A stretch of 64,000 nt of DNA from Escherichia phage vB_Eco_BCPEco_001. The stretch lies in sequence record PV295200.1. One strand, written 5' to 3'. The first letter of the stretch is position 1; every line of letters begins with the position of its first letter. The notes under the pieces were generated by a model. That model had not been told where the DNA came from. It saw only the letters and a program-made list of their open reading frames with translations, and searched no databases. This document shows positions 2,869-52,267 of the stretch, piece after piece. Both the position numbers and the translations under genes were made by a program.

Positions 2869-3984
2869 TTAAACTTCTCTAAATTCTTGCCCAAACACTT
2901 TGCCAGTTTTAGAAGAGGCTTGTGTAGGAAGTACCATTATATCTGGAGGTGAAGCCGATTCGCAGACATAATTAACGCGAATACCGTTGACGCCAAATTC
3001 GGCAGGTTTTGAAATGCCGCCATTTCTTGATACTTCAGAAAAGCTTAAATTTCTCATGCCGCCTTGACCTGCTTGGGCAGTTCTTTGTGTGTATATCGTA
3101 AATCCTACTGCATTTTCAGGAACAACTACATAATCTTCTTTTAATTCCCAAGACCCAGCTTGCCCAGTAAACTCAGCTTGGGTAGAGGAAATATATCCAT
3201 TTGATGCATCATAAAAACGAATGGATATGTTTGTAGTTCCAAGATCAAGTAAATCAGCATCAGCATATAACTGTGCTTTAAGATAAAGAACATCACCAGG
3301 AATTAAATTATAGTCAGAAAGTTTACTTATAGCAGCTGAAGTTGGCAATCGCGCAATTTCGTTATTAGTTCCACCAACTGCTGACATGAATTGCTCTACA
3401 CTTTCATAAGTTCTTTTTGGAAATCCTGTCGCTCCGACGTCTTCTAAACTATCAAATACAACATCTAAAATAGTTTGATAATCATCTGTGCTTTTTCTAT
3501 TACTTAGTTTAACATGCTCTAATGCAATAGCTCTTTTAGAAGAAGTATAAAAAGCAGCATATGACACGTCAAATCTTGACAATACTGAATCTGATGGAAA
3601 AACTGAAGTTCCTGCTCCCCTTAACCAAGATACCACTTCAGGAGGAAAATTAACCTTTCCGCTAGTTAATATAGCAACAAGTCTATTGTTTGACAAAGAA
3701 TTCATGAAACTGACAAAAGTGGTAGATGTTGTATTGTTTGAAGCAGAAAAAGCATATGACTTACTATCAACTAATGCTCCCGTAGAAGGGTCAAAAACTC
3801 TTAAATGAAGACCTGCACTAAATGTTTGATTTCCAACGGGATTATCCTGAAATTTAACATATGGTCCCGCAGTAGAAAGCGGGCAAGAACCCGCTATGCT
3901 TATTTTATATCTTACTGAATTGCTTTCCGATAAAAATGGCGTTTGGACATATCCTTGTCCAAACTCTGCCATAAATTTTTCCAT
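2869..3984 (-). CDS. 35: long tail fibre hinge protein gp35
   Basis: 371-aa ORF MEKFMAEFGQGYVQTPF...; length and synteny match T4 gp35. Confidence 0.9.
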   Translation of the reverse strand: MEKFMAEFGQGYVQTPFLSESNSVRYKISIAGSCPLSTAGPYVKFQDNPVGNQTFSAGLHLRVFDPSTGALVDSKSYAFSASNNTTSTTFVSFMNSLSNNRLVAILTSGKVNFPPEVVSWLRGAGTSVFPSDSVLSRFDVSYAAFYTSSKRAIALEHVKLSNRKSTDDYQTILDVVFDSLEDVGATGFPKRTYESVEQFMSAVGGTNNEIARLPTSAAISKLSDYNLIPGDVLYLKAQLYADADLLDLGTTNISIRFYDASNGYISSTQAEFTGQAGSWELKEDYVVVPENAVGFTIYTQRTAQAGQGGMRNLSFSEVSRNGGISKPAEFGVNGIRVNYVCESASPPDIMVLPTQASSKTGKVFGQEFREV

Positions 3985-13528: not shown

Positions 13529-13573
13529 TTATTTAGCTTCATAAAATGTATTATAATTTATATAAGGTACTAA

Positions 13574-14122
13574 ATGAAACAATACCAATTTTTAATTAAA
13601 GATATCCTGGAAAATGGCTACGAAACCGATGACCGAACAGGCACAGGAACAATTGCTTTGTTCGGTACTAAATTACGCTGGGATTTAACTAAAGGTTTTC
13701 CTGCAGTAACAACTAAGAAGCTCGCCTGGAAAGCTTGCATTGCTGAGCTAATATGGTTTTTATCGGGAAGCACAAATGTCAATGATTTACGATTAATTCA
13801 GCATGATTCGTTAATCCAAGGCAAAACAGTCTGGGATGAAAATTACGAAAATCAAGCAAAAGATTTAGGATACCATAGCGGTGAACTTGGTCCAATTTAT
13901 GGAAAACAATGGCGCGATTTTGGCGGTGTAGACCAAATTATAGAAGTTGTTGATCGTATTAAAAAATTGCCAAATGATAGACGTCAAATTGTTTCAGCAT
14001 GGAATCCAGCTGAACTCAAGCAGATGGCATTACCGCCTTGTCATATGTTCTATCAGTTTAATGTGCGTAATGGCTATTTGGATTTGCAGTGGTATCAACG
14101 ATCAGTAGATGTTTTCTTGGGT
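13574..14122 (+). CDS. td: thymidylate synthase, exon 1
   Basis: MKQYQFLIKDILENGYETDDRTGTGT...QRSVDVFLG; in-frame TAA at 14123 is the first intron codon. Confidence 0.9.
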
Positions 14123-15138
14123 TAATTGAGGCCTGAGTATAAGGTGACTTATACTTGTAATCTATCTAAACGGGGAACCTCTCTAGTAGACAATCCCGTG
14201 CTAAATTGTAGGACTGCCCTTTAATAAATACTTCTATATTTAAAGAGGTATTTATGAAAAGCGGAATTTATCAGATTAAAAATACTTTAAACAATAAAGT
14301 ATATGTAGGAAGTGCTAAAGATTTTGAAAAGAGATGGAAGAGGCATTTTAAAGATTTAGAAAAAGGATGCCATTCTTCTATAAAGCTTCAGAGGTCTTTT
14401 AACAAACATGGTAATGTGTTTGAATGTTCTATTTTGGAAGAAATTCCATATGAGAAAGATTTGATTATTGAACGAGAAAATTTTTGGATTAAAGAGCTTA
14501 ATTCTAAAATTAATGGATACAATATTGCTGATGCAACGTTTGGTGATACATGTTCTACGCATCCATTAAAAGAAGAAATTATTAAGAAACGTTCTGAAAC
14601 TGTTAAAGCTAAGATGCTTAAACTTGGACCTGATGGTCGGAAAGCTCTTTACAGTAAACCCGGAAGTAAAAACGGGCGTTGGAATCCAGAAACCCATAAG
14701 TTTTGTAAGTGCGGTGTTCGCATACAAACTTCTGCTTATACTTGTAGTAAATGCAGAAATCGTTCAGGTGAAAATAATTCATTCTTTAATCATAAGCATT
14801 CAGACATAACTAAATCTAAAATATCAGAAAAGATGAAAGGTAAAAAGCCTAGTAATATTAAAAAGATTTCATGTGATGGGGTTATTTTTGATTGTGCAGC
14901 AGATGCAGCTAGACATTTTAAAATTTCGTCTGGATTAGTTACTTATCGTGTAAAATCTGATAAATGGAATTGGTTCTACATAAATGCCTAACGACTATCC
15001 CTTTGGGGAGTAGGGTCAAGTGACTCGAAACGATAGACAACTTGCTTTAACAAGTTGGAGATATAGTCTGATCTGCATGGTGACATGCAGCTGGATATAA
15101 TTCCGGGGTAAGATTAACGACCTTATCTGAACATAATG
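14123..15138 (+). mobile_element. group I self-splicing intron in td (1016 nt) carrying homing endonuclease I-TevI
   Basis: Exon ends ...TTGGGT; intron starts TAATTGAGGCCTGAG and ends ...ACATAATG (terminal G); contains conserved core blocks GTAGGGTCAAGTGACTCGAAA and ATATAGTCTGATCTGCATGGTGACATGCAGC. Confidence 0.9.
14254..14991 (+). CDS. I-TevI: intron-encoded GIY-YIG homing endonuclease I-TevI
   Basis: 245-aa ORF MKSGIYQIKNTLNNKVYVGSAKDFEKRWKRH... (GIY-YIG motif); located inside td intron. Confidence 0.9.
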   Translation: MKSGIYQIKNTLNNKVYVGSAKDFEKRWKRHFKDLEKGCHSSIKLQRSFNKHGNVFECSILEEIPYEKDLIIERENFWIKELNSKINGYNIADATFGDTCSTHPLKEEIIKKRSETVKAKMLKLGPDGRKALYSKPGSKNGRWNPETHKFCKCGVRIQTSAYTCSKCRNRSGENNSFFNHKHSDITKSKISEKMKGKKPSNIKKISCDGVIFDCAADAARHFKISSGLVTYRVKSDKWNWFYINA

Positions 15139-16017: not shown

Positions 16018-18272
16018 TTAATGTTATCAAAAGTAGTGGTGTTTCTCAGAGCTTTGACCCGCAAAAAATTATTAAAGTTTTATCTTGGGCAGCTGAAGGA
16101 ACATCAGTAGATCCTTATGAATTATATGAAAATATTAAATCTTATCTCCGTGATGGAATGACAACTGATGATATTCAGACTATTGTCATTAAGGCCGCTG
16201 CGAATTCTATTTCGGTTGAAGAGCCTGATTATCAATATGTAGCTGCACGCTGTTTAATGTTCGCTCTTCGTAAGCATGTTTATGGGCAGTATGAACCACG
16301 TTCATTTATTGACCATATTTCTTACTGTGTAAATGAAGGTAAATACGACCCTGAATTGTTGTCAAAATATTCAGCAGAAGAAATTACATTTTTAGAATCA
16401 AAAATTAAGCACGAGCGGGATATGGAATTTACTTATTCCGGGGCGATGCAATTAAAAGAAAAATATCTAGTTAAAGATAAAACCACTGGTCAAATTTATG
16501 AAACTCCACAGTTTGCATTTATGACTATTGGAATGGCATTGCATCAAGATGAACCTGTTGATAGATTAAAACATGTTATTCGTTTTTATGAAGCAGTATC
16601 TACTCGACAGATTTCATTGCCAACTCCTATTATGGCTGGTTGTCGTACTCCAACTCGACAGTTTAGTTCATGCGTTGTTATTGAGGCAGGTGATTCATTA
16701 AAGTCTATCAATAAGGCTTCTGCTTCAATTGTTGAGTATATCTCCAAACGCGCTGGAATTGGTATTAACGTTGGTATGATTCGTGCCGAAGGTTCTAAGA
16801 TTGGCATGGGTGAAGTACGTCATACTGGTGTTATTCCTTTTTGGAAACATTTTCAGACTGCAGTTAAATCATGTTCACAGGGTGGAATTCGTGGCGGCGC
16901 TGCTACTGCTTATTATCCTATTTGGCATTTGGAAGTTGAAAATCTTCTCGTTTTGAAAAATAACAAAGGCGTAGAAGAAAACCGCATTCGTCATATGGAT
17001 TATGGCGTTCAACTGAATGATTTGATGATGGAACGTTTTGGAAAGAACGATTACATTACTTTGTTCAGTCCGCATGAAATGGGTGGCGAGCTTTATTATT
17101 CTTATTTTAAAGACCAAGACCGTTTCCGTGAATTATACGAAGCAGCAGAAAAAGACCCTAATATTCGTAAAAAGCGTATTAAAGCCCGTGAACTATTTGA
17201 ATTGCTCATGACTGAACGTTCAGGAACAGCAAGGATTTATGTACAGTTCATTGATAATACGAATAACTATACTCCGTTTATTCGTGAAAAGGCACCTATT
17301 CGTCAGAGTAACTTGTGCTGTGAAATTGCTATTCCAACAAATGATGTGAATAGTCCTGATGCTGAAATTGGATTGTGTACTCTCTCTGCATTCGTACTAG
17401 ATAATTTTGACTGGCAAGACCAAGATAAAATTAATGAATTGGCAGAAGTTCAAGTTCGTGCTCTTGATAATCTTTTGGATTACCAAGGATATCCAGTTCC
17501 TGAAGCAGAAAAAGCTAAAAAGCGTCGTAACCTCGGTGTAGGTGTTACAAACTATGCAGCTTGGCTGGCAAGTAACTTTGCTTCTTATGAAGATGCCAAC
17601 GATTTAACACATGAACTATTTGAGAGATTACAGTATGGACTCATTAAAGCATCCATTAAGCTCGCCAAAGAAAAAGGACCTTGCGAATATTATTCAGACA
17701 CTCGTTGGTCTCGAGGCGAATTACCTATCGACTGGTACAATAAAAAGATTGACCAAATCGCAGCTCCAAAATACGTTTGTGACTGGTCGTCGCTGCGGGA
17801 AGACCTTAAGCTCTTTGGCATCCGTAATAGCACATTATCAGCACTTATGCCATGTGAGTCATCTTCCCAAGTTTCTAACAGTACAAACGGTATCGAGCCT
17901 CCACGTGGACCAGTCTCTGTTAAAGAATCAAAAGAGGGCTCCTTTAATCAAGTCGTGCCCAATATTGAGCATAACATAGACCTTTACGACTATACATGGA
18001 AATTAGCTAAGAAAGGTAATAAACCTTATCTTACGCAGGTAGCTATTATGCTGAAATGGGTATGTCAATCAGCTTCAGCGAATACATACTATGACCCGCA
18101 GATTTTTCCAAAAGGAAAGGTTCCAATGTCAATAATGATTGATGACCTTTTGTATTTCTGGTATTTTGGCGGAAAAAATTTCTATTATCATAATACCCGT
18201 GATGGTTCTGGTACTGATGATTATGAAATAGAAACTCCAAAAGCTGAAGATTGTTCATCCTGTAAATTATGA
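16008..18272 (+). CDS. nrdA: ribonucleotide reductase large subunit
   Basis: 754-aa ORF, same length as T4 NrdA; class Ia RNR features. Confidence 0.95.
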   Translation: MQLINVIKSSGVSQSFDPQKIIKVLSWAAEGTSVDPYELYENIKSYLRDGMTTDDIQTIVIKAAANSISVEEPDYQYVAARCLMFALRKHVYGQYEPRSFIDHISYCVNEGKYDPELLSKYSAEEITFLESKIKHERDMEFTYSGAMQLKEKYLVKDKTTGQIYETPQFAFMTIGMALHQDEPVDRLKHVIRFYEAVSTRQISLPTPIMAGCRTPTRQFSSCVVIEAGDSLKSINKASASIVEYISKRAGIGINVGMIRAEGSKIGMGEVRHTGVIPFWKHFQTAVKSCSQGGIRGGAATAYYPIWHLEVENLLVLKNNKGVEENRIRHMDYGVQLNDLMMERFGKNDYITLFSPHEMGGELYYSYFKDQDRFRELYEAAEKDPNIRKKRIKARELFELLMTERSGTARIYVQFIDNTNNYTPFIREKAPIRQSNLCCEIAIPTNDVNSPDAEIGLCTLSAFVLDNFDWQDQDKINELAEVQVRALDNLLDYQGYPVPEAEKAKKRRNLGVGVTNYAAWLASNFASYEDANDLTHELFERLQYGLIKASIKLAKEKGPCEYYSDTRWSRGELPIDWYNKKIDQIAAPKYVCDWSSLREDLKLFGIRNSTLSALMPCESSSQVSNSTNGIEPPRGPVSVKESKEGSFNQVVPNIEHNIDLYDYTWKLAKKGNKPYLTQVAIMLKWVCQSASANTYYDPQIFPKGKVPMSIMIDDLLYFWYFGGKNFYYHNTRDGSGTDDYEIETPKAEDCSSCKL

Positions 18273-18323: not shown

Positions 18324-18999
18324 ATGAGCACAGTTTTTAATACAAACCCAGTTGATGTTTTAAAAGAACCTATGTTTTTTGGTTCAGGTCTTGGTATTGC
18401 GCGTTATGATATTCAACGGCATCGAGTATTTGAAGAACTTACTGAGAAATCTTTATCATTTTTCTGGCGTCCTGAAGAAGTAAACTTAATGATGGATGCT
18501 GCGCAATTTAATAAGCTTCCTCAATATCAGCAAAATATTTTTACTAACAACCTGAAGTATCAATCACTTTTGGATAGCATTCAGGGTCGTGCACCTTCTG
18601 CTGTACTTATGTCATTAATTTCAGACCCGAGTCTTGATACATGGGTTGCTACATGGACTTTTAGTGAAACTATTCACAGCCGTTCATATACACATATCAT
18701 GCGAAATCTTTATACTGATCCGTCAAAGGTATTTGATGAGATTGTATTAGATGAAGCTATTATGAAACGTGCTGAATCCATTGGACGCTATTATGATGAC
18801 GTTCTGATTAAAACCCGTGAATGGGAAAATGCTAAAGAATTTGTAGAACTAGCTAAAGAATCTCCTGATGCTGTCTTTCGTTTAAACCGAGCTATTAAAC
18901 AAGAAGCCGAAGCTAAACGTGCTTTAATGAAATCTCTTTACCTCTGTTTGCACGTTATTAATGCCTTAGAAGCAATTCGTTTTTATGTATCTTTTGCGT
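18324..18999 (+). CDS. nrdB: ribonucleotide reductase small subunit, exon 1
   Basis: MSTVFNTNPVDVLKEP...ALEAIRFYVSFA; 3' boundary inferred (exon ends in U; possible P1 pairing GCGU with intron GCGC); boundary +/- a few nt. Confidence 0.75.
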
Positions 19000-20089
19000 A
19001 AAATGCGCCTTTAAACGGTAACGTTTATCGAAAACTCCTTTAATTGCTGGAAAGTCCTTTATAGGAAAACTAGCAGCCAAGGTTTTGCTTGCACCTTTAA
19101 TTAGTATAATATAAATATGATTATACTTTTAAGAGGATGCACAATTGAACTATAGAAAAATTTGGATAGATGCTAACGGACCTATACCTAAAGATTCTGA
19201 TGGAAGAACATACGAAATCCATCATAAAGACGGTAACCGTGAAAATAATGATTTAGATAATTTGATGTGCCTTTCTATACAGGAACATTATGATATACAT
19301 TTAGCTCAAAAAGATTACCAGGCTTGTCATGCTATAAAGCTTAGAATGAAATATTCTCCTGAAGAAATTTCTGAATTAGCTTCTAAAGCCGCAAAATCTA
19401 GAGAAATCCAGATTTTTAATATCCCTGAAGTACGAGCTAAAAATATTGCCTCTATTAAATCTAAGATAGAAAATGGTACATTTCATCTTTTAGATGGTGA
19501 AATACAGCGTAAATCTAATTTAAATAGAGCTGCATTAGGTATACATAATTTTCAACAAGCTGAGCATATTGCAAAAGTTAAAGAACGCAATATTGCAGCT
19601 ATAAAAGAAGGTACTCATGTATTTTGCGGTGGTAAAATGCAGTCAGAAACTCAATCAAAACGGGTAAATGACGGTTCACATCATTTCTTATCAGAAGACC
19701 ATAAGAAAAGAACATCAGCAAAAACATTAGAAATGGTTAAGAACGGGACCCATCCTGCACAAAAAGAAATCACATGTGATTTCTGTGGTCACATTGGTAA
19801 AGGTCCTGGATTTTATCTAAAACATAATGACAGATGTAAATTAAATCCAAATAGAATTCAATTGAATTGTCCATATTGTGATAAGAAAGATTTATCACCA
19901 TCAACATATAAACGATGGCACGGCGACAATTGCAAAACAAGGTTCAACGACTAGTCTTCGGACGTAGGGTCAAGCGACTCGAAATGGGGAGAATCCCTCC
20001 GGGATTGTGATATAGTCTGGACTGCATGGTAACATGCAGCAGTTCATAAGAGAACGGGTTGAGAATTAGCGAGCTCAATCGAACATACG
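19000..20089 (+). mobile_element. group I self-splicing intron in nrdB (~1090 nt) carrying full-length HNH endonuclease I-TevIII
   Basis: Interrupts NrdB between ...YVSFA and (C)TFNFHKNMEIMEGNAKI; shares core blocks GTAGGGTCAAGCGACTCGAAA and ATATAGTCTGGACTGCATGGTAACATGCAGC with td intron. Confidence 0.8.
19145..19954 (+). CDS. I-TevIII: intron-encoded HNH homing endonuclease I-TevIII (full length)
   Basis: 269-aa ORF from TTG 19145 (AAGAGGA 7 nt upstream); HNH motif EIHHKDGNRENNDLDNLMCLSIQEH; C-terminal Cys clusters (CDFCGH, CPYCD). Confidence 0.8.
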   Translation: MNYRKIWIDANGPIPKDSDGRTYEIHHKDGNRENNDLDNLMCLSIQEHYDIHLAQKDYQACHAIKLRMKYSPEEISELASKAAKSREIQIFNIPEVRAKNIASIKSKIENGTFHLLDGEIQRKSNLNRAALGIHNFQQAEHIAKVKERNIAAIKEGTHVFCGGKMQSETQSKRVNDGSHHFLSEDHKKRTSAKTLEMVKNGTHPAQKEITCDFCGHIGKGPGFYLKHNDRCKLNPNRIQLNCPYCDKKDLSPSTYKRWHGDNCKTRFND

Positions 20090-20592
20090 GTACCTTTAAC
20101 TTCCATAAGAATATGGAAATTATGGAAGGTAATGCAAAGATTATGAAGTTCATTGCACGTGATGAGCAGCTTCATCTTAAAGGCACCCAATATATTATTC
20201 GTCAGCTTCAATCCGGTACTGATGGCGATGAATGGGTTAAAATTGCTCAAGAGTGTGAACAAGAAGCAGTTGATATTTTCATGGAAGTTAACCGCCAAGA
20301 AAAAGATTGGGCAGTTCATTTATTTAAAGATGGAGATGTTCCTGGATTAAATACAAATAGCATGTGGAGCTTTATTGATTACTTAACTGTATCTCGTATG
20401 AAGCAGTGTGGTCTTCCATGCCCAATTACCGATGCTCCGGTTAAACATCCATATCCTTGGATTCGTGAATATCTTAATTCTGATAATGTTCAATCTGCGC
20501 CACAAGAAGTAGAATTGTCATCTTACCTTGTTGCACAGATTGATAATGATGTTGATGATAAAGTTATGATGAGTTTTAAAAAATACTTTTAA
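20090..20592 (+). CDS. nrdB: ribonucleotide reductase small subunit, exon 2
   Basis: ...MEGNAKIMKFIARDEQLHLKGTQYI... continues RNR R2 frame to stop at 20592; 5' boundary inferred. Confidence 0.75.
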
Positions 20593-43461: not shown

Positions 43462-44088
43462 ATGTATGAATACAAATTTGATGTGAGAGTTGGTTCTAAA
43501 ATAATCAATTGTCGCGCATTCACGCTTAAAGAATATCTAGAACTTATTACTGCCAAAAATAATGGTTCAGTAGAAGTAGTTGTTAAAAAGCTAATCAAAG
43601 ACTGCACAAATGCAAAAGATTTAAACCGCCAAGAATCAGAACTATTGTTGATTCATTTATGGGCACATTCTCTCGGTGAAGTTAATCACGAAAACTCCTG
43701 GAAGTGCACCTGTGGAACTGAAATACCAACCCATATAAATCTATTACATACGCAAATAGATGCACCAGAAGACCTCTGGTATACACTGGGTGACATTAAA
43801 ATTAAGTTCCATTACCCCAAAATTTTTGATGATAAAAATATAGCCCACATGATAGTATCATGTATAGAAACGATTCATGCTAACGGGGAAAGCATTCCAA
43901 TTGAAGACTTGAATGAAAAAGAGTTGGAAGATTTATATTCTATCATCACAGAGTCAGATATTGTAGCTATAAAAGATATGCTTTTAAAGCCTACTGTTTA
44001 TTTGGCTGTTCCAATTAAGTGTCCAGAGTGTGGAAAAACCCATGCTCACGTAATAAGAGGACTCAAAGAATTCTTTGAGCTATTGTAA
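43462..44088 (+). CDS. 26: baseplate hub subunit gp26
   Basis: 208-aa ORF, same length as T4 gp26; divergent from gene 51. Confidence 0.85.
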
Positions 44089-44486
44089 TGGCAAATATTA
44101 ATAAGCTTTATTCTGATATTGACCCAGAGATGAAAATGGATTGGAACAAAGACGTTTCAAGATCACTTGGATTAAGGTCAATTAAAAATAGTCTTTTAGG
44201 AATTATTACAACAAGAAAAGGTTCAAGACCGTTTGACCCTGAATTTGGATGCGATTTATCTGACCAACTTTTTGAGAATATGACTCCTCTTACTGCTGAC
44301 ACGGTTGAGCGTAATATCGAAAGCGCAGTAAGAAACTATGAGCCACGTATTGATAAATTAGCAGTTAATGTAATACCGGTTTATGATGATTATACTTTGA
44401 TAGTAGAAATACGCTTTTCAGTCATCGATAACCCTGATGATATTGAGCAGATAAAACTACAACTGGCTTCCAGTAATAGAGTATAA
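44088..44486 (+). CDS. 25: baseplate wedge subunit gp25
   Basis: 132-aa [31 protein letters not shown]..., same length as T4 gp25. Confidence 0.9.
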   Translation: MANINKLYSDIDPEMKMDWNKDVSRSLGLRSIKNSLLGIITTRKGSRPFDPEFGCDLSDQLFENMTPLTADTVERNIESAVRNYEPRIDKLAVNVIPVYDDYTLIVEIRFSVIDNPDDIEQIKLQLASSNRV

Positions 44487-44512
44487 TGCTTCACGTATAA
44501 ACGTGGTATAAT
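44484..44512 (+). promoter_or_regulatory. MotA-type middle promoter for uvsY
   Basis: TAATGCTTCA box, 13-nt gap, TATAAT, ~40 nt upstream of ATG. Confidence 0.55.
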
Positions 44513-44552
44513 GAATCTAAGTCCATCCAATAACAATTGAATAGAGAACAAT

Positions 44553-44966
44553 ATGAGATTAGAAGATCTTCAAGAAGAATTGAAGAAAGATGTGTTTATA
44601 GATTCGACTAAATTACAGTATGAAGCAGCTAATAATGTGATGTTATATAGTAAATGGCTTAATAAGCATTCAAGTATTAAAAAGGAAATGCTTAGAATTG
44701 ATGCACAGAAAAAAGTTGCTCTTAAAGCTAAATTAGACTACTACTCGGGACGAGGAGATGGTGATGAATTTAGTATGGATCGTTACGAGAAATCAGAAAT
44801 GAAGACAGTTCTATCAGCTGATAAGGATGTTTTAAAGGTTGATACCTCGTTACAGTATTGGGGGATTTTATTAGATTTCTGTAGCGGAGCTCTTGATGCT
44901 ATTAAATCACGTGGATTTGCTATTAAGCATATTCAAGACATGCGAGCATTTGAGGCTGGAAAATAA
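44553..44966 (+). CDS. uvsY: recombination mediator protein UvsY
   Basis: 137-aa ORF, same length as T4 UvsY; MotA-type middle promoter upstream. Confidence 0.9.
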   Translation: MRLEDLQEELKKDVFIDSTKLQYEAANNVMLYSKWLNKHSSIKKEMLRIDAQKKVALKAKLDYYSGRGDGDEFSMDRYEKSEMKTVLSADKDVLKVDTSLQYWGILLDFCSGALDAIKSRGFAIKHIQDMRAFEAGK

Positions 44967-45190
44967 TGAGATATAACATTGATGATGCTTTTAATTATGA
45001 AGAAGAATTTGAAACGGAAATTCAATTCTTAATGAAAAAGCATAATCTTAAGCGTCAGGATATTTGTATCCTGGCCGACCACCCGTGTGGTGAAGATGTC
45101 CTTTATATTAAAGGAAAATTTGCCGGATATCTTGATGAATATTTTTATTCTAAAGATATGGGCATTGATATGCATATGAGAGTTGTATAA
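44966..45190 (+). CDS. hypothetical protein (uvsY.-1 position)
   Basis: 74-aa ORF overlapping uvsY stop. Confidence 0.5.
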   Translation: MRYNIDDAFNYEEEFETEIQFLMKKHNLKRQDICILADHPCGEDVLYIKGKFAGYLDEYFYSKDMGIDMHMRVV

Positions 45191-45193
45191 ATA
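45186..45193 (+). promoter_or_regulatory. late promoter (TATAAATA) upstream of 55-aa ORF
   Basis: Exact TATAAATA overlapping stop of preceding ORF. Confidence 0.45.
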
Positions 45194-45218
45194 GATATAT
45201 AATTCAGAGGAGACAATC

Positions 45219-45386
45219 ATGTCAGATAAGATTTGTGTTGTCTGTAAAACTCCAATCGATTCTGCATTGGTTGTTGAAACAGACAAAGGTCCTGTACATC
45301 CTGGGCCTTGCTATAATTACATTAAAGAACTACCAGTTTCAGAAAGTTCGGAAGAACAATTAAATGAAACACAACTTTTGCTATAG
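45219..45386 (+). CDS. hypothetical small Cys-containing protein (uvsY.-2 position)
   Basis: 55 aa MSDKICVVCKTPIDS...HPGPCYNY (CxxC...C); TATAAATA 26 nt upstream; below ORF-track cutoff. Confidence 0.4.
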   Translation: MSDKICVVCKTPIDSALVVETDKGPVHPGPCYNYIKELPVSESSEEQLNETQLLL

Positions 45387-45409
45387 TGTGACCTTTAGTC
45401 TATAGTTTT

Positions 45410-45438
45410 GGCCCTTCCTTTTTGGTTGGGCCTTTTTT
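45410..45438 (+). terminator. rho-independent terminator ending the uvsY operon
   Basis: GGCCC-13 nt loop-GGGCC followed by TTTTTT. Confidence 0.55.
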
Positions 45439-45441
45439 AAT

Positions 45442-45684
45442 TTAAAAGCTTTCTTCTACTTCATCATCTGAATCTTCTAATTCAGCTCTTTTTCCTGCCA
45501 AAGCATCTCTCACAGAGATGTCATCAGTATCTTTTAATTCAGTTTCTTTGACTCTTTTCTTATAATAAGCTTCAAGTTCTTCTAAACCTTCTAATGTTTG
45601 ACAAGAGGCAATTTTACCCATAAATTCATCAATAGAAGCTTCATAAAGAAATTGTTTAAATTCTAGTAACATCTTTTTCTCCAA
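45442..45684 (-). CDS. hypothetical protein (uvsW.1 position)
   Basis: 80-aa acidic ORF immediately downstream of uvsW. Confidence 0.6.
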   Translation of the reverse strand: MEKKMLLEFKQFLYEASIDEFMGKIASCQTLEGLEELEAYYKKRVKETELKDTDDISVRDALAGKRAELEDSDDEVEESF

Positions 45685-45697
45685 AGGGCCGAAGCCC

Positions 45698-47209
45698 TTA
45701 TAAATTAACTGTTTTCATTACGTAATTAAATTTTTCATCTGCGTAGCGCTGAATACGATCAATGCCGTGTTTTAAAAGATAGTTCAAATGAACATATTTC
45801 TTTTTTGTATTAGCAGATTTTGGCTTAACACCGCAATCATCTATGAGGTCCCAGACTGTTGCTATTGTCTTAGAACCATGCTTACGTAATACACGACCGA
45901 TTGTTTGCAATACAATGATTTTTGATTTAACACCGTGCGCTAAAACAACGTGATGCAGATTTTTAACTGAAATACCAGTAGAAAATACACCATAACTAGC
46001 TACTATAATTATTCCTTTACCATTTTCAGCTAAGGTTTTCATTATATTGCGGGTTTCGGTATCAACTTCCCCTGATACGTAATAAACTTTATCGTATTCA
46101 TTTTTAATTAAATCGAAAATAGCTTTACCGTGCGATACATGTTTAAACATGACAAAAGCGTTTTCATCTTTTTGCGCAAGCTTAATAGCTAATTTAGCGA
46201 TCCATTTATTTCTTTTACTAAGCCCAGTAATAATTTTTATTTCTTCTTGGTAAGTTTTTCCCTTTAATTTAGTAGTGAACTCATCGGGATAGCGAAGAAA
46301 AATACTATTAATTTTTAGCTCAGTTACTTGTCCATCTTCCATTAATTTAGAAGTCGTTACTGGCTTAAATATTTCACCAAACATTCCAACATACTGCATG
46401 ATATTGGCTTTGCCATCACGTAATGAACCTGATAGACCAAATTTAAACATACAGTTATTTAATCCTGATATGATAGATGAAATACTTTTTCCTGTAGCAA
46501 GATGGCATTCATCATTCATCATCATTCCAAACTGTGAGAACCATTCTTTTGGTTGTTTAACTACAGTTTGCCATGTACCAACGACGACTGGTGCATCATT
46601 TTTATATTTATCATCTTTTGATGCTCCGCCACCGATTTTCTTTATCATTGCATGACTGAATAAACGATAATCAACAAAGTCATCAGCCATCTGAGTTGTC
46701 AGAGCAGTTGTTGGAACAATGATAAGAATTTTACCTTCATAATTTTCCAAATAATATCGCGCAAGCAAAGCTTGAATTAAAGATTTACCCGCAGATGTTG
46801 GAAGATTAAGAATTCTACGACGATTAACTAATCCTTCGAACACTGCATCTTTTTGATACCAGTGTGGTTCAATTCTTTTATTTCCTGAATAGATTTCTAA
46901 TTTAGAAAGCCATTCATCAAAATCTTTTCTTGATAATTCTTCTTTTTCGTTAATTTGCGGGTCAATCCAGGCTTTATAGCCAAAATTATCACAGAACTTT
47001 TTAATTTGCCCGACTAAGCCGAATGGAAGAAGACGATTATAATCTAAAAGACGGATTCGTCCATCCCAGTTGCCATATCTGAAGCGAGGATTAAACCTAT
47101 ATCCATCAGCTTCAAAGCTAAAGAAATCACGGAGTTCATGAAATGTACTTTCTTCACAATCAATTCTCACGTGACTAAAATCATAAAAATGTACTTTAAT
47201 GTCAGTCAT
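45698..47209 (-). CDS. uvsW: UvsW RNA-DNA / DNA helicase
   Basis: 503 aa; SF2 helicase motifs (Walker A PTSAGKS, DECH box NDECHLA). Confidence 0.9.
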   Translation of the reverse strand: MTDIKVHFYDFSHVRIDCEESTFHELRDFFSFEADGYRFNPRFRYGNWDGRIRLLDYNRLLPFGLVGQIKKFCDNFGYKAWIDPQINEKEELSRKDFDEWLSKLEIYSGNKRIEPHWYQKDAVFEGLVNRRRILNLPTSAGKSLIQALLARYYLENYEGKILIIVPTTALTTQMADDFVDYRLFSHAMIKKIGGGASKDDKYKNDAPVVVGTWQTVVKQPKEWFSQFGMMMNDECHLATGKSISSIISGLNNCMFKFGLSGSLRDGKANIMQYVGMFGEIFKPVTTSKLMEDGQVTELKINSIFLRYPDEFTTKLKGKTYQEEIKIITGLSKRNKWIAKLAIKLAQKDENAFVMFKHVSHGKAIFDLIKNEYDKVYYVSGEVDTETRNIMKTLAENGKGIIIVASYGVFSTGISVKNLHHVVLAHGVKSKIIVLQTIGRVLRKHGSKTIATVWDLIDDCGVKPKSANTKKKYVHLNYLLKHGIDRIQRYADEKFNYVMKTVNL

Positions 47210-47238
47210 GTCTAAATACCATGTAATAAATATATCTA

Positions 47239-47246
47239 TATTTATA
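47239..47246 (-). promoter_or_regulatory. late promoter (TATAAATA) for uvsW
   Basis: Exact TATAAATA on minus strand ~30 nt upstream of uvsW ATG. Confidence 0.55.
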
Positions 47247-47259
47247 CTGAGGAAATATT

Positions 47260-47940
47260 ATGATAGATAAAGATTATATTGCAGAGCTGAAGGCTCTTGA
47301 TGATAACAAAGAAGCTAAAGCTAAATTAGCTGAATATGCTGAACAGTTTGGTATAAAGGTCAAAAAGAATAAATCTTTTGATAATATCGTTGTTGATATT
47401 GAAGAAGCCCTCCAGAAGCTCGCTAGTGAACCTATGCCGGAGACTGATGGGTTATCTATTAAAGACTTAATTGATGCTGCTGATGCTGCAGAGGGGTTAA
47501 AATATGACGATGAAGAAGTCAATCCAGAAGCAGCACTTCTGATTGATTCTCCGGTTAAATCTGACATTAAAATTGAAGTAGTAAAAACGGATAAAATTCC
47601 TGAAAATACCTCAGTTTTGATTGAAGATACTCCTTTTGTTGAAGAAAAATTCGAACAGGCTGTAGCTGAGATTATTGAATCTGAAAAGCCGTCTGTATTT
47701 ACTCTTCCGGAAAACTTTAGCCCAAATCTTCAGCTGATTGGAAAAAATCCAGGATTCTGTACTGTTCCTTGGTGGATTTATCAATGGATTGCTGAAACTC
47801 CGGATTGGAAATCTCACCCAACTAGTTTTGAACATGCGTCAGCACACCAAACTTTATTTAGCTTAATTTATTACATTAACCGTGACGGATCAGTTTTAAT
47901 TCGTGAAACACGCAACTCTTCTTTCGTAACATTAAAATAA
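47260..47940 (+). CDS. inh: Inh, inhibitor of prohead protease
   Basis: 226-aa ORF directly upstream of hoc, as in T4. Confidence 0.8.
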   Translation: MIDKDYIAELKALDDNKEAKAKLAEYAEQFGIKVKKNKSFDNIVVDIEEALQKLASEPMPETDGLSIKDLIDAADAAEGLKYDDEEVNPEAALLIDSPVKSDIKIEVVKTDKIPENTSVLIEDTPFVEEKFEQAVAEIIESEKPSVFTLPENFSPNLQLIGKNPGFCTVPWWIYQWIAETPDWKSHPTSFEHASAHQTLFSLIYYINRDGSVLIRETRNSSFVTLK

Positions 47941-47949
47941 GGATAACTT

Positions 47950-49370
47950 ATGACTTTTACAGTTGATATAACTCCTAAAACACCGACAGGGGGTTATTGA
48001 TGAAACTAAGCAGTTTACTGCTACACCCAGTGGTGAAACTGGAGGCGGAACTATTACATATGCTTGGACTGTAGATGATGCTCCACAAGATGGAGCTGAA
48101 GCAACTTTTGATTATGTATTAAAAGGACCTGCTGGACAAAAGACTATTAAAGTAGTTGCAACAAATACAGTTCCAGATACTGATGCTGAAACAGCAGAAG
48201 CTACTACAACTATCACAGTTCAAAATAAGACACAAACGACTACCTTAGCTGTAACTCCTAATAGTCCTCCGGAAGGAGTAATCGGAACAGCTGTTGAATT
48301 TACCGCTGCCTTAGATTCGCAGCCACCTGGCGCATCTGCTACGTATCAATGGCACGTTGACGGTTCTCCTGCGGGCGAAGCAACTTCTGCTACATTCAAT
48401 TACACTCCTACCACAAGCGGAGTTAAAACAATTAAGTGTGTGGCTCAAGTAACCGCAACAGATTATGATGCAAAAGAAGTTACTTCTAATGAAGTGTCAC
48501 TGACTGTTAATAAAAAGACACAGACAACTACCTTAGCCGTAACTCCTGATAGTCCTTCAGCTGGAGTAATTGGAACCCCCAGTTCAATTTACTGCTGCCT
48601 TAGCTTCTCAACCAGTTGGAGCGTCTGCTACGTATCAGTGGTATGTAGATGATTCACAAGTTGGTGGAGAAACTAACTCTACATTTAGCTATACTCCAAC
48701 TACAAGTGGAGTAAAAAGAATTAAATGCGTAGCCCAAGTAACTGCTGAAAATTACAATGAAAAGGAAGTTACTTCTAATGAAGTATCATTAACGGTTAAT
48801 AAGAAGACAATGAATCCACAGGTTACATTGACTCCTCCTTCTATTAACGTGCAGCAAGATGCTTTGGCTACATTTACCGCTAATGTCACTGATGCTCCAG
48901 AAGAAGCGCAAATTGCGTATTCATGGAAGAAAGATTCTTCTCCTGTAGAAGGGTCAACTAATGTATATACCGTTGATACCTCATCTATTGGAAGTCAAAC
49001 TATTGAAGTTACTGCAACTGTTACTGCTGCTGATTATGATAGCAAAACTATTACGGCAGAAGGTCAAGTTCAGGTAACTGATAAAGTTGCTCCGGAACCA
49101 GAAGGTGAATTACCTTATGTTCATCCTCTTCCACACCGTAGCTCAGCTTACATCTGGTGTGGTTGGTGGGTTATGGATGAAATCCAAAAAATGACTGAAG
49201 AAGGTAAAGATTGGAAAACTGAAGATCCAGATAGTAAATACTACCTGCATCGTTACACTCTTCAGAAGATGATGAAAGACTATCCAGAAGTTGATGTCCA
49301 AGAATCACGTAATGGATACATCATTCATAAAACTGCTTTAGAAACTGGTATCATCTATACCTATCCATAA
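47950..49370 (+). pseudogene. hoc: hoc (highly immunogenic outer capsid protein) interrupted by two +1 frameshifts; also carries an extra Ig-like domain
   Basis: ATG 47950 gives MTFTVDITPKTPTGG then stop at 47998; frame continues in +1 after a G5 run (47989-47993) and again in +1 after a C5 run (48576-48580); C-terminus ...GIIYTYP. Confidence 0.8.
48227..48803 (+). repeat. tandem duplication (2 x ~288 bp) inside hoc encoding two Ig-like domains
   Basis: Copies start AAGACACAAACGACTACCTTAGC (48227) and AAGACACAGACAACTACCTTAGC (48515); encoded 96-aa units ~78% identical. Confidence 0.8.
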
Positions 49371-49374
49371 TCGT

Positions 49375-49399
49375 AAGGGGCTTCGGCCCCTTTCTTCAT
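49375..49399 (+). terminator. rho-independent terminator after hoc
   Basis: AAGGGGC-TTCG-GCCCCTT followed by TCTTCATTTT. Confidence 0.65.
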
Positions 49400-49459
49400 T
49401 TTGAAAGCATACAAAACACAACTTGAGATTGATGTATATAATGGCACCAACTCGATAAC

Positions 49460-49675
49460 ATGAGATTGATTATGAGAACTGAGGTTGTGGTGTTTACTCT
49501 TCATGAGTCTGGAAAGTCATTCATTGAAATTGCTCGTGAATTAAACTTACAGGCAAAGGAAGTGGCTGTATTATGGGCTCGAGCTATGACTGCTAAGAAT
49601 AAATTTGAAACTCGAGAAAAAGTTGTCTATAGAAAAAGACATATCAATAAAAAGGTGAAAAATGGAACAGTATGA
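49460..49675 (+). CDS. hypothetical protein, possible helix-turn-helix (24.3 position)
   Basis: 71-aa ORF; GKSFIEIARELNLQAKEVAVLWARA looks like an HTH. Confidence 0.45.
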   Translation: MRLIMRTEVVVFTLHESGKSFIEIARELNLQAKEVAVLWARAMTAKNKFETREKVVYRKRHINKKVKNGTV

Positions 49676-49940
49676 TCTTTATGAAAATGAATCTTTTGCT
49701 AATCAATTACGCGAAAAAGCATTCAAAAGTAAACAGTTTAAGCTAGAGTGTTTTATTAAAGATTTTTCAGAACTTGCTAATAAAGCAGCTGAACAAGGTA
49801 AAACATATTTTAGTTATTATTGTACTGCTCGCGATAAATTGATTACTGAAGAAATTGGTGATTGGTTGAGAAAAGAAGGATTTAATTTTAAAGTCAATAG
49901 TGATCAGCGTGATGGTGATTGGTTAGAAATTACATTTTGA
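49662..49940 (+). CDS. hypothetical protein (24.2 position)
   Basis: 92-aa ORF. Confidence 0.5.
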   Translation: MEQYDLYENESFANQLREKAFKSKQFKLECFIKDFSELANKAAEQGKTYFSYYCTARDKLITEEIGDWLRKEGFNFKVNSDQRDGDWLEITF

Positions 49941-49949
49941 GGATTAATT

Positions 49950-50954
49950 ATGTTTAAAAAGTATAGCAGTCTTGAAAATCATTACAACTCTAAATTTATT
50001 GAAAAACTTTATAGCTTGGGATTGACTGGTGGGGAGTGGGTAGCTCGTGAAAAGATTCACGGCACAAATTTCTCATTGATTATTGAGCGTGATAAAGTAA
50101 CTTGCGCTAAACGTACTGGACCGATTCTTCCTGCTGAAGATTTCTTTGGGTATGAAATTATTCTAAAGAATTACGAAGATTCTATTAAAGCAGTACAAGA
50201 TATTATGGAAACCTCAGCGGTTGTATCTTATCAAGTCTTTGGCGAATTCGCTGGACCTGGCATTCAGAAGAATGTCGATTATGGCGATAAAGATTTTTAT
50301 GTATTTGACATTATTGTCACTACAGAAAGTGGTGATGTGACTTATGTCGATGATTATATGATGGAATCATTTTGTAATACATTTAAATTTAAAATGGCTC
50401 CACTTTTAGGTCGCGGTAAATTTGAAGAGCTTATTAAATTGCCAAATGATTTAGATTCTGTCGTCCAAGATTATAATTTTACAGTAGACCATGCCGGATT
50501 AGTTGATGCAAATAAATGCATTTGGAATGCCGAAGCAAAAGGCGAAGTATTTACCGCTGAAGGATATGTATTGAAACCTTGTTATCCTTCTTGGCTTCAT
50601 AATGGAAATCGTGTAGCCATCAAATGCAAGAATTCCAAATTTAGTGAAAAGAAAAAGTCTGATAAGCCTATTAAAGCTAAAGTTGAACTATCAGAAGCTG
50701 ATAACAAATTGGTGGGAATTTTAGCTTGCTACGTTACACTGAACCGAGTAAATAACGTTATTTCTAAAATTGGTGAAATTGGTCCGAAGGATTTTGGAAA
50801 GGTGATGGGACTAACTGTTCAAGATATTTTGGAAGAAACTTCTCGTGAAGGTATTACTCTAACTCAAGCAGATAATCCTTCTTTGGTTAAAAAGGAATTA
50901 GTTAAAATGGTACAAGATGTACTTCGTCCGGCTTGGATTGAATTGGTAAGTTAA
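49950..50954 (+). CDS. rnlB: RNA ligase 2
   Basis: 334 aa; nucleotidyltransferase lysine motif KIHGTN; same length as T4 Rnl2. Confidence 0.9.
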
Positions 50955-50957
50955 ATA

Positions 50958-50988
50958 AAAAGGGACCGAAAGGTCCCTTTGTTTTATT
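50958..50988. terminator. bidirectional terminator between convergent rnlB and gene 24
   Basis: AAAGGGACC-GAA-AGGTCCCTTT followed by GTTTTATT. Confidence 0.65.
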
Positions 50989-52267
50989 CATCAACGATAA
51001 TTTTTGGTAGCTTAACACCTAATAAAACAGACAAATCTGAACGACCCGCCATTTTATCCATGTCTCCACCATCAATTACTCTTGCTTCTTTTTCATCTTT
51101 TGCTACGGTGTAAGGATTTGCAGATAAAGCATATCTAACTAATAAACCGATAGATGGCTGCAAACTTTCTGGGTCAACTACAACTTTAAATGCACCTACA
51201 TGTTCAGGGTCATCTAAGTCAAGACCTTCTGTATACGGAGCATAGAAAATTGACCCAACAATTTCTTTTTCACCGATATTTTCTACTACGCCAACGATTA
51301 CATAATCTAATGGGCTGTTAGTATCGCAATAAAGCGGTAAACCATTAGCTAAGAACCCGTAGGCATTTTGTGAAAGATACTTATCATCTTCTGGTTTATG
51401 TTTTAACCAACCAGATGCAGCAAGAATCGCAGCGGCACGAGCTGAAGCAACACAGAACGTTGCCGTATAAGTTGATTCTTTTTGGATATGCGAAACCATT
51501 TCACATACCATTCGGTATAATGAACGACCAGCTTCAGGTGCAGATGCATAACTCAAATCAATGAATCCAGTATCAGTAATTCCTGTAACTTTATAACGTT
51601 TTGATACTGTAATCAAAGACTGCAGAATATCTTTATTGATTTCATCTGCCATTTCAGTTGCAAGCAAATCTTCCAAGAAATTAGGAGCATCGAATCCATT
51701 TGCTTCTAAATCTTGCGCTAATTCAACTGTGATACCAGTTTTAAGTTTACGAGATTTAACTGCGGTTTGCCATTTATTAATCTGGAATCTAGCATCCGCA
51801 ATTTCACTATCAGAGCTTTCAAATTTGCTTGTTGACGCTGCGTCAGAAAATAGACGAACCTTTAAAAGAACAATTGCAATCTGAAGAGCTAATTCTAAAT
51901 CGCTTTCTTCAATATCAGCAAATGGTGTATCTTCTAATACTTTATAAACGATATTATTATATTTGAATAAATCGCCCTTATTGAGAGTTAATTTAGACTC
52001 TTCTGTTAATTCTGTGATTTGTTCTCGGTCTACATATCCAGCTTCGCCAGCGTAAGTAGCACCAGTTTTAAATGTAAATTCGTTGTCTGGGTTAAGGTAT
52101 TTGATACCATAAAAAGCAGCAACAGGTTGATTAGTTCTTTGCGTTGCTACAATGTCAGAATATATTAATTTAGTGGTAGCGCGAGTCAAAGCAACGAGAT
52201 TTGGGCGACCGATTGAGTTGCTATTCGTTGTGGTTGATTCGCGCAGAAGTTCGTTGATTTTAGCCAT
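50984..52267 (-). CDS. 24: head vertex protein gp24
   Basis: 427-aa ORF, capsid-protein paralog; same length as T4 gp24. Confidence 0.9.
   Translation of the reverse strand: MAKINELLRESTTTNSNSIGRPNLVALTRATTKLIYSDIVATQRTNQPVAAFYGIKYLNPDNEFTFKTGATYAGEAGYVDREQITELTEESKLTLNKGDLFKYNNIVYKVLEDTPFADIEESDLELALQIAIVLLKVRLFSDAASTSKFESSDSEIADARFQINKWQTAVKSRKLKTGITVELAQDLEANGFDAPNFLEDLLATEMADEINKDILQSLITVSKRYKVTGITDTGFIDLSYASAPEAGRSLYRMVCEMVSHIQKESTYTATFCVASARAAAILAASGWLKHKPEDDKYLSQNAYGFLANGLPLYCDTNSPLDYVIVGVVENIGEKEIVGSIFYAPYTEGLDLDDPEHVGAFKVVVDPESLQPSIGLLVRYALSANPYTVAKDEKEARVIDGGDMDKMAGRSDLSVLLGVKLPKIIVDE

Follow-up and report, generated by a model that had tools for sequence, protein, structure and literature searches.

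In vB_Eco_BCPEco_001, an Escherichia phage, the gene for the capsid decoration protein Hoc is divided among three reading frames by two single-base insertions, and these lesions recur in other phage genomes and in independent public assemblies. Hence, we consider it very probable that this hoc gene is a genuine, inherited null allele of Tequatrovirus that decayed in two steps. The analysis covers a 64,000-nt stretch of the phage sequence (PV295200.1; referred to as the window), which is a segment of a Tequatrovirus (T4-like) genome and to which all coordinates refer unless another record is named. Hoc is a non-essential fibre of immunoglobulin-like (Ig) domains that is present in 155 copies and whose C-terminal domain binds the hexamer centre (PMC10385173).

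Two insertions divide hoc among three frames

The complete hoc pseudogene lies on the plus strand at 47950-49370, and its 1421 nt correspond to 1419 nt plus two inserted bases. Initiation signals are intact: the Shine-Dalgarno (SD) sequence AAGGA (47939-47943, plus strand) is positioned 6 nt before ATG 47950, and its duplex with the anti-SD sequence (-6.0 kcal/mol) is inside the range of the long open reading frame (ORF) starts of the window (median of 45 such starts, -5.6 kcal/mol). From this ATG, the sequence in frame 0 is MTFTVDITPKTPTGGY up to the stop codon TGA 47998-48000, with a second TGA as the next codon. The residual ORF (47950-48000, plus strand) comprises 16 codons (MTFTVDITPKTPTG plus GY) and would yield the sole product to be expected from the native start. 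The first +1 insertion is located in the run GGGGG at 47989-47993 (G5), at which the other aligned sequences except the carriers described below have four bases. Hoc continues in a second frame (47993-48652) that reads ...GVIDETKQFTATPSG... and covers residues 15 to ~209, i.e., the first two Ig-like domains and the beginning of the third. The second +1 insertion is located in the run CCCCC at 48576-48580 (C5), which is C4 in every GenBank relative and C5 on four Logan contigs. Past C5, the second frame is out of the Hoc frame until its stop at 48650-48652, and a third frame holds the remainder of Hoc, ending with TAA 49368-49370. This remainder includes the homologue of the capsid-binding domain at the C-terminus (49080-49367, equivalent to T4 residues 281-376; domain limits from PMC10385173), which is intact in sequence and unreachable from the native start. 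Translation of the window thereby bears out every coordinate of the first-pass annotation, which had traced the gene from ATG 47950 through G5, the stop at 47998, the frame open to 48652 and C5 into a third frame, and had concluded that full-length Hoc cannot be made.

Deletion of one G and one C restores a 1419-nt ORF for a Hoc of 472 amino acids (aa). This repaired Hoc is matched by tblastn in a single piece over residues 1-472 in 57 of the 60 best phage records (93.4-96.0% identity), and many of the best-matching records carry a hoc/Hoc annotation. Thus, the homology is far beyond chance, and the two lesions are the only defects of the gene. Four Ig/PKD-like repeat units are visible in the translation, followed by the capsid-binding domain, so that the repaired protein shows both the repeat string and the C-terminal domain of Hoc. 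The Pfam PKD model scores 31.5 bits on it (cut-off 23.5), and Ig_3 and other PKD models score below their cut-offs. In the C-terminal 290 nt of hoc, 0-14 nt differ between the window and 11 relatives. Intact four-Ig Hocs of 472 aa, for example in Escherichia phages Pu-Krd-SF5, a48, VEc74 and PP01, share locus, repeats and C-terminal domain with the window. While each of these Hocs is encoded by one uninterrupted frame of 1419 nt, the hoc gene of the window carries one additional base at the G run and another at the C run. Relative to the aligned sequences of relatives and to the intact gene of at least 57 records, the two insertions are disabling.

Repaired hoc contains 18 homopolymer runs of at least 4 nt, and 16 of these consist of A or T, including two A5 and one A6. 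The insertions struck the only G4 and the only C4 of the gene, which has 1 chance in 153 if all runs are equally mutable. This pattern hints at a possible bias towards insertions in G:C runs in these phages.

Recurrence of the lesions in other genomes and assemblies

Single-base gains in homopolymers are a classic class of sequencing error, and the simplest alternative is a sequencing or assembly artefact in a genome that really has G4 and C4 and an intact hoc. The G5 stretch argues against it. Among 142 GenBank records that match this stretch, six are exact over 63 nt and represent four other phages from different laboratories, namely Shigella phage SHFML-11, Salmonella phage vB_Sen_BCPSen_003, Shigella phage vB_Shso_BCPShso_001 and Yersinia phage PST. 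Inexact matches account for the remaining 136, and all non-carriers in an alignment of 12 sequences have four bases at the G run. In line with an artefact, C5 is present in none of the 333 GenBank records that match its site. However, the exact 266-aa product encoded across C5 (N-terminus MEPPVQF) is found on four Logan contigs, from runs SRR8771457, ERR15500946, ERR15500949 and ERR15500950, which belong to two accession series. C5 is accompanied by a derived T at 48865 (plus strand), which converts a Ser codon (TCG) that is present in all 11 other aligned hoc sequences to Leu (TTG). All four contigs carry both C5 and T48865, and all three contigs that reach the G run carry G5. Hence, the three changes occur together on the contigs of SRR8771457, ERR15500946 and ERR15500950; the contig of ERR15500949 is short and ends before the G run.

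The run SRR8771457 was produced by Illumina MiSeq (2x250) from a pooled phage index of a different laboratory (PMC6856289). Its contig (49 kb) is identical to the window at ~44000-51000 and has 192 differences in 20.8 kb (98.94% identity), and the ERR contigs have ~12 substitutions relative to the window in gene 24. Accordingly, at least three genomes that differ slightly from one another, drawn from two accession series, have the doubly frameshifted allele. Thus, the lesions are reproducible and inherited: they are carried by GenBank phages, by Logan contigs and by a genome ~1% diverged from the window. Because G5 and C5 occur in different genomes and in an Illumina MiSeq assembly, an artefact is effectively excluded, and we regard this explanation as almost certainly wrong. 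Genuine pseudogenisation, which the first-pass annotation had judged to fit at least as well as random sequencing error, is favoured by this evidence. As far as public assemblies allow, other reads carry G5 and C5 and not the G4 and C4 that would leave hoc intact.

The remainder of the window likewise argues against an artefact. To assess frame integrity, stop-to-stop ORFs of T6, SHFML-11 and a Logan contig were compared with the window by tblastn. Only hoc and nrdB matched in more than one frame. The nrdB halves lie in different frames ~1.1 kb apart (18324-20589), which is probably the known intron/endonuclease arrangement of T-even phages and no defect; the two corresponding nrdB coding sequences (CDSs) of SHFML-11 are separated by an annotated homing-endonuclease gene. 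When all indels relative to SHFML-11 were listed base by base, C5 was the sole isolated single-base homopolymer indel in an identical context, and the remaining indels lie in diverged patches or lack a gene placement. Hence, the frames elsewhere in the 64 kb are intact, as had been claimed from the sequence at first, and since no other gene is frameshifted, there is no general homopolymer noise in the assembly. Moreover, the 16 A/T runs of hoc are unaltered, A5 and A6 included. Systematic error from modified cytosines at G/C runs was considered as well and rejected, given that hundreds of relatives show four bases at both runs and no other gene of the window is frameshifted.

Exact-pattern scans of other collections were less informative. 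In IMG/VR, G5 and C5 had no matches, G4 had two and C4 had one, and too few such phages are included to inform on the alleles. The scans of Joint Genome Institute (JGI) metagenomes (no match for G5 and none for G4) and of GTDB genomes (no match for G5) were without power.

Proposed stepwise decay and the capacity to make Hoc

Gains of one base in short mononucleotide runs are classic products of replication slippage according to the Streisinger model, which was worked out in T4. Starting from an ancestor with G4 and C4, slippage in the only G4 run (codon 15) would have produced G5 and a translation stop after 16 codons. This first-step allele circulates in several related phages and would correspond to the stage of SHFML-11 and BCPSen_003. 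In one sub-lineage, the untranslated gene would then have gained a base in the only C4 run as well as the Ser-to-Leu change, which would correspond to the stage seen in the window and on the Logan contigs.

We infer the order of the two events from the G5 carriers. In SHFML-11 (KX130861 / NC_030953) and BCPSen_003 (PV368562), hoc is the same as in the window, G5 included, but both phages have C4 and the ancestral Ser codon (C at 48865), so that they show one hit where the window shows two. Accordingly, the lesions are not equivalent, which refines the first-pass annotation: G5 appears to be older and is present in several genomes, and C5 appears to be later and confined to one sub-lineage. The flanks of hoc in SHFML-11 are identical to the window over 4.5 kb. 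Window and SHFML-11 have a common block at 43996-51379 (7,384 nt), which is shared by the SRR8771457 contig. Only two differences between window and SHFML-11 are found in this block, the C insertion and the C-to-T change at 48865, and both fall into the 1,421 nt of hoc (p=0.037 under a uniform distribution across the block, from two events only). The block extends from uvsW to the start of gene 24 with 1-3% divergence on both sides, and it clearly illustrates mosaic exchange between these phages.

The window, SHFML-11, BCPSen_003 and BCPShso_001 (PV295201) have one and the same sequence of inh and of Ig domain 1, which includes G5. In BCPShso_001, inh (0/681) and domain 1 (0/291) show no differences from the window, but the hoc body is a different one with three Ig domains, for which RB18 is the closest full-length GenBank match. 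Hence, recombination took place after the origin of G5. BCPSen_003 diverges from the window in rnlB, and together with the different hoc body of BCPShso_001 this identifies the G5 carriers as distinct genomes. PST (KF208315) has G5 at the same position, and its hoc differs from that of the window by 2-9% in domains 2-4. Furthermore, segment-wise distances reveal strong mosaicism, and in PST, G5 is combined with T6-like inh, Ig domain 4 and C-terminal segments. Neither PST nor BCPShso_001 has C5. All four carriers have truncated annotations, with the remnant of hoc annotated as a 3' ORF of 930 nt in SHFML-11 and BCPSen_003 (309 aa) and in PST, and as a 744-nt ORF in BCPShso_001. BCPShso_001 has an extra 1-nt deletion near the stop codon (window equivalent 49362; ~3140-3155 of the compared piece), by which ...TYP* is replaced by the read-through TIHNHKGLRPLSSF*, i.e., a second extra lesion on a G5 allele.

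According to this stepwise decay, virions would lack Hoc and their hexamer centres would be bare, like those of laboratory hoc-minus T4. Plaque formation would be unaffected, and properties of Hoc that depend on the Ig domains would be lost (surface/mucus adherence, immunogenicity and virion dispersion). The expected phenotype is modelled by the T4 mutant HAP1, a viable spontaneous hoc nonsense mutant (C496T, ochre), and by engineered hoc deletions of T4, which show that loss of Hoc is viable (PMC10580926, PMC10385173). While HAP1 carries a single nonsense substitution selected in the laboratory, the window carries two frameshift insertions, and the allele has spread among several phages that were isolated from nature or are used in production.

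Rescue of the Hoc frame from starts close to the first lesion appears inefficient. Between G5 and GTG 48440, no ATG, GTG or TTG occurs in the Hoc frame. GTG 48440 has a weak SD (-2.2 kcal/mol) and its ORF (70 aa, 48440-48652) is also broken by C5; an exact look-up of the 70-aa product finds none on record. The insertion in G5 creates the hexamer AGGGGG 6 nt upstream of ATG 48000, and the predicted anti-SD duplex of -10 kcal/mol is stronger than those of all 45 long-ORF starts of the window. We rejected re-initiation at this ATG, which overlaps the stop codon (TGATG), since it is in the wrong frame and yields only a 24-aa peptide. The short ORF behind AGGGGG (47997-48074, plus strand, from TTG 47997 or ATG 48000) is out of the Hoc frame, and its product of 24-25 aa, if made, would be a junk peptide that does not rescue Hoc.

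Alternatively, the ribosome might correct the frame by +1 frameshifting at G_GGG_G and C_CCC_C, so that full-length Hoc is made, or the G run might act as a phase-variation switch. We consider both highly unlikely. A +1 slip of the GGG-decoding tRNA in G5 would restore exactly ...PTGVIDE..., and the hexamer AGGGGG created by G5 is the same as the SD-like hexamer that stimulates the frameshift in prfB. In prfB, however, the spacing is 3 nt, as compared to 1 nt between AGGGGG and the UAU codon in the window. The UAU codon ahead of the stop is unable to re-pair in +1 (AUU), and although GGG re-pairs, the A-site codon that follows is the common GGU, at which no pause is expected. In addition, the putative shift sites are not conserved (G5 in 6/142 and C5 in 0/333 records), and in-frame versions dominate among the homologues. 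Recoding similar to prfB at AGGGGG-UAU-UGA was therefore rejected on codon re-pairing and lack of conservation. In favour of recoding or a switch, SHFML-11, BCPSen_003 and PST keep the downstream frame fully open, as does BCPShso_001 up to the late 1-nt deletion, and G5 occurs in at least two haplotype contexts (PST vs the SHFML-11 group) and with three different hoc bodies. With respect to switching, contingency tracts are typically far longer than these runs of 4-5 nt, and the second frameshift and the missense change at a conserved Ser look like decay. G4 and G5 are both found on one domain-1 haplotype (a48 and the window). Also in favour of recoding, non-programmed suppression of frameshifts at ~1-5% per favourable site is documented in E. 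coli (PMC10861913). The window requires two independent corrections, which multiplies two small probabilities, and the joint yield of Hoc should thus be negligible and capsids are expected to be Hoc-less.

Another possibility, which we judge unlikely, is a shortened Hoc from an internal start that forms a stubby decoration, either of 266 aa from TTG 48570 or of 186 aa from ATG 48810. C5 joins TTG 48570, which is out of frame in the C4 allele, to the frame that encodes part of Ig domain 3 and all that follows, namely Ig domain 4 and the capsid-binding domain. The resulting third-frame ORF (48570-49370, plus strand) is open, has GGAG 3 nt upstream and is predicted by the gene caller, also on the four Logan contigs. 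With an anti-SD energy of -5.9 kcal/mol, TTG 48570 is comparable to the median of the long-ORF starts, a value that is reached by 5% of random start-like triplets. Moreover, natural Hocs with one or two Ig domains and the C-terminal domain exist in other phages (PMC10385173). However, TTG is a weak start and the 3-nt spacing is below the optimum of ~5-9 nt, the GGAG lies in codons for Ala-Gly-Val in coding sequence that is conserved for other reasons, and the first strand of Ig domain 3 would be missing. The SD of ATG 48810 is weak (-2.4 kcal/mol), and comparison with relatives gives no signal of selection for the 266-aa ORF.

Several points weigh against a two-step loss of Hoc. First, evidence for relaxed selection consists of two changes only. 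Second, the G5 of PST might have been acquired by recombination from the event seen in the other carriers or might be a separate insertion, and the data fit both origins because domain 1 is nearly invariant across many phages (0/290 differences between intact a48 and the window apart from the G). Third, Illumina origin is established for one of the four runs, SRR8771457, and Logan contigs are de Bruijn assemblies, for which mixed samples may yield chimeras; k-mers across both runs must still occur in the reads even if the contigs are chimeric. Finally, the absence of Hoc from virions is predicted from sequence, and the 266-aa ORF with the capsid-binding domain is open behind GGAG-N3-TTG, which makes a short Hoc-like product possible. 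In-silico start scoring argues only against efficient initiation at GTG 48440 and ATG 48810.

If stepwise decay is correct, the window and its relatives display two decay stages of a Hoc-null allele that circulates naturally. SHFML-11 belongs to a commercial Shigella phage preparation and has close relatives from the Sextaphag cocktail (PMC13600099), and Illumina MiSeq was the platform for at least one BCP-series phage (PMC13650296). The phage group with this allele includes a commercial anti-Shigella component and relatives from therapeutic or biocontrol products (PMC13600099, PMC13650296). Immunogenicity, adherence and virion dispersion are attributed to Hoc in the literature, and Hoc-null production phages could therefore differ in their pharmacology from Hoc-positive relatives. 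The allele is unable to display Hoc fusions from its own gene, and the Hoc sites on its capsids should be vacant and thus available for in-vitro display. For annotation, hoc should be marked as a pseudogene in such genomes, neither listed as a 266-aa or 309-aa "capsid and scaffold protein" nor silently repaired. Current understanding is not overturned by this allele, as the dispensability of hoc is already established (non-essential under laboratory conditions, PMC10385173).

Other disrupted hoc genes and neighbouring features

Broken hoc genes are not very unusual, and inactivation of a dispensable decoration gene by homopolymer slippage is of a kind already known. In T6 (NC_054907 / AP018814; MH550421), an additional A lies within GGAGTTAAAAAGAATT, at the SGVK motif of Ig domain 2. 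The T6 hoc sequence (1132 nt) is identical in two independent records (16704-17835 of the compared NC_054907 piece, minus strand; 290-1549 of the MH550421 piece) and is annotated as two CDSs in RefSeq and unannotated in MH550421. Both T6 and the window have a +1 change in a homopolymer, but T6 has it at another site, as a single lesion and in a hoc with three Ig domains. A reporter-phage paper of 2026 places an insertion at the T6 hoc CDS KMB99_gp220 and leaves the frameshift unmentioned.

In UPWr_E2 (852-2269 of the compared piece), hoc is split and a base is lost beside the A run of the domain-2 SGVK motif. In PM105 (852-2270 of the compared piece), the gene is likewise split, with a base gained at the domain-2 SGVK motif and a base lost at the A run of domain 3. 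The window equivalents of these lesions are 48422-48429 and 48718. The SGVK motif, which is also struck in T6, may be a recurrent hotspot of slippage or of error. Furthermore, the protein cluster at 90% identity contains truncated members of 278 and 281 aa from UFV05, UFV09 and EH2. Among ~50 full-length nucleotide matches sampled by spread, 4 or 5 look disrupted, and some of these may be errors; BCPSen_003, ZCEC14, UFV09, SCS4 and BCPShso_001 stand out by a split annotation or by a hoc span not divisible by three. Candidates for further lesions are ZCEC14, with a hoc span of 1418 nt, and UFV09 and SCS4, with split annotations. A literature search on hoc frameshifts and pseudogenes in T4-like phages and on the Hoc status of T6 and T2 found no paper on these lesions.

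Instead of neutral decay, loss of Hoc might be a recurrent, selected or switchable state in T4-like phages propagated by humans, with the variant that C5 re-creates an expressible short Hoc of 266 aa behind GGAG-TTG. We consider this improbable. It is allowed by the data because G5 occurs on at least two flanking haplotypes and with three hoc bodies, because the hits struck the only G4 and the only C4 among the 18 runs, and because several carriers are production, biocontrol-series and long-propagated stocks (SHFML-11 of ShigaShield, the BCP series, Yersinia phage PST and, with its own lesion, T6).

The surroundings of hoc have the conserved arrangement. The order inh - hoc - 24.3/24.2/rnlB is kept, with hoc on the strand of inh, as judged from annotated synteny with SHFML-11, PST, T6, RB18 and a48, and Pfam labels of the neighbours on a Logan contig agree. 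Hence, hoc of the window is at its conserved position. In the window, inh (47260-47940, plus strand) lies upstream of hoc, and uvsW is located at 45698-47209 on the minus strand according to the ORF list and annotated relatives. On the other side, homologues of 24.3 and 24.2 lie between hoc and rnlB by annotated synteny, and rnlB follows at 49950-50954. Directly 3' of hoc, an intrinsic terminator hairpin AAGGGGCTTCGGCCCCTT with a T-rich tail is found at 49375-49392 (plus strand), and we therefore expect no polar effect of the lesions on downstream genes.

Outside this region, the gene for the proximal tail-fibre connector (gp35 homologue) is an intact ORF in the window (371 aa; 2869-3984, minus strand) and spans 1116 nt in T6. 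In SHFML-11 (13536-14651 of the compared piece), it is annotated with 699 nt, which may reflect a lesion or a mis-annotation.

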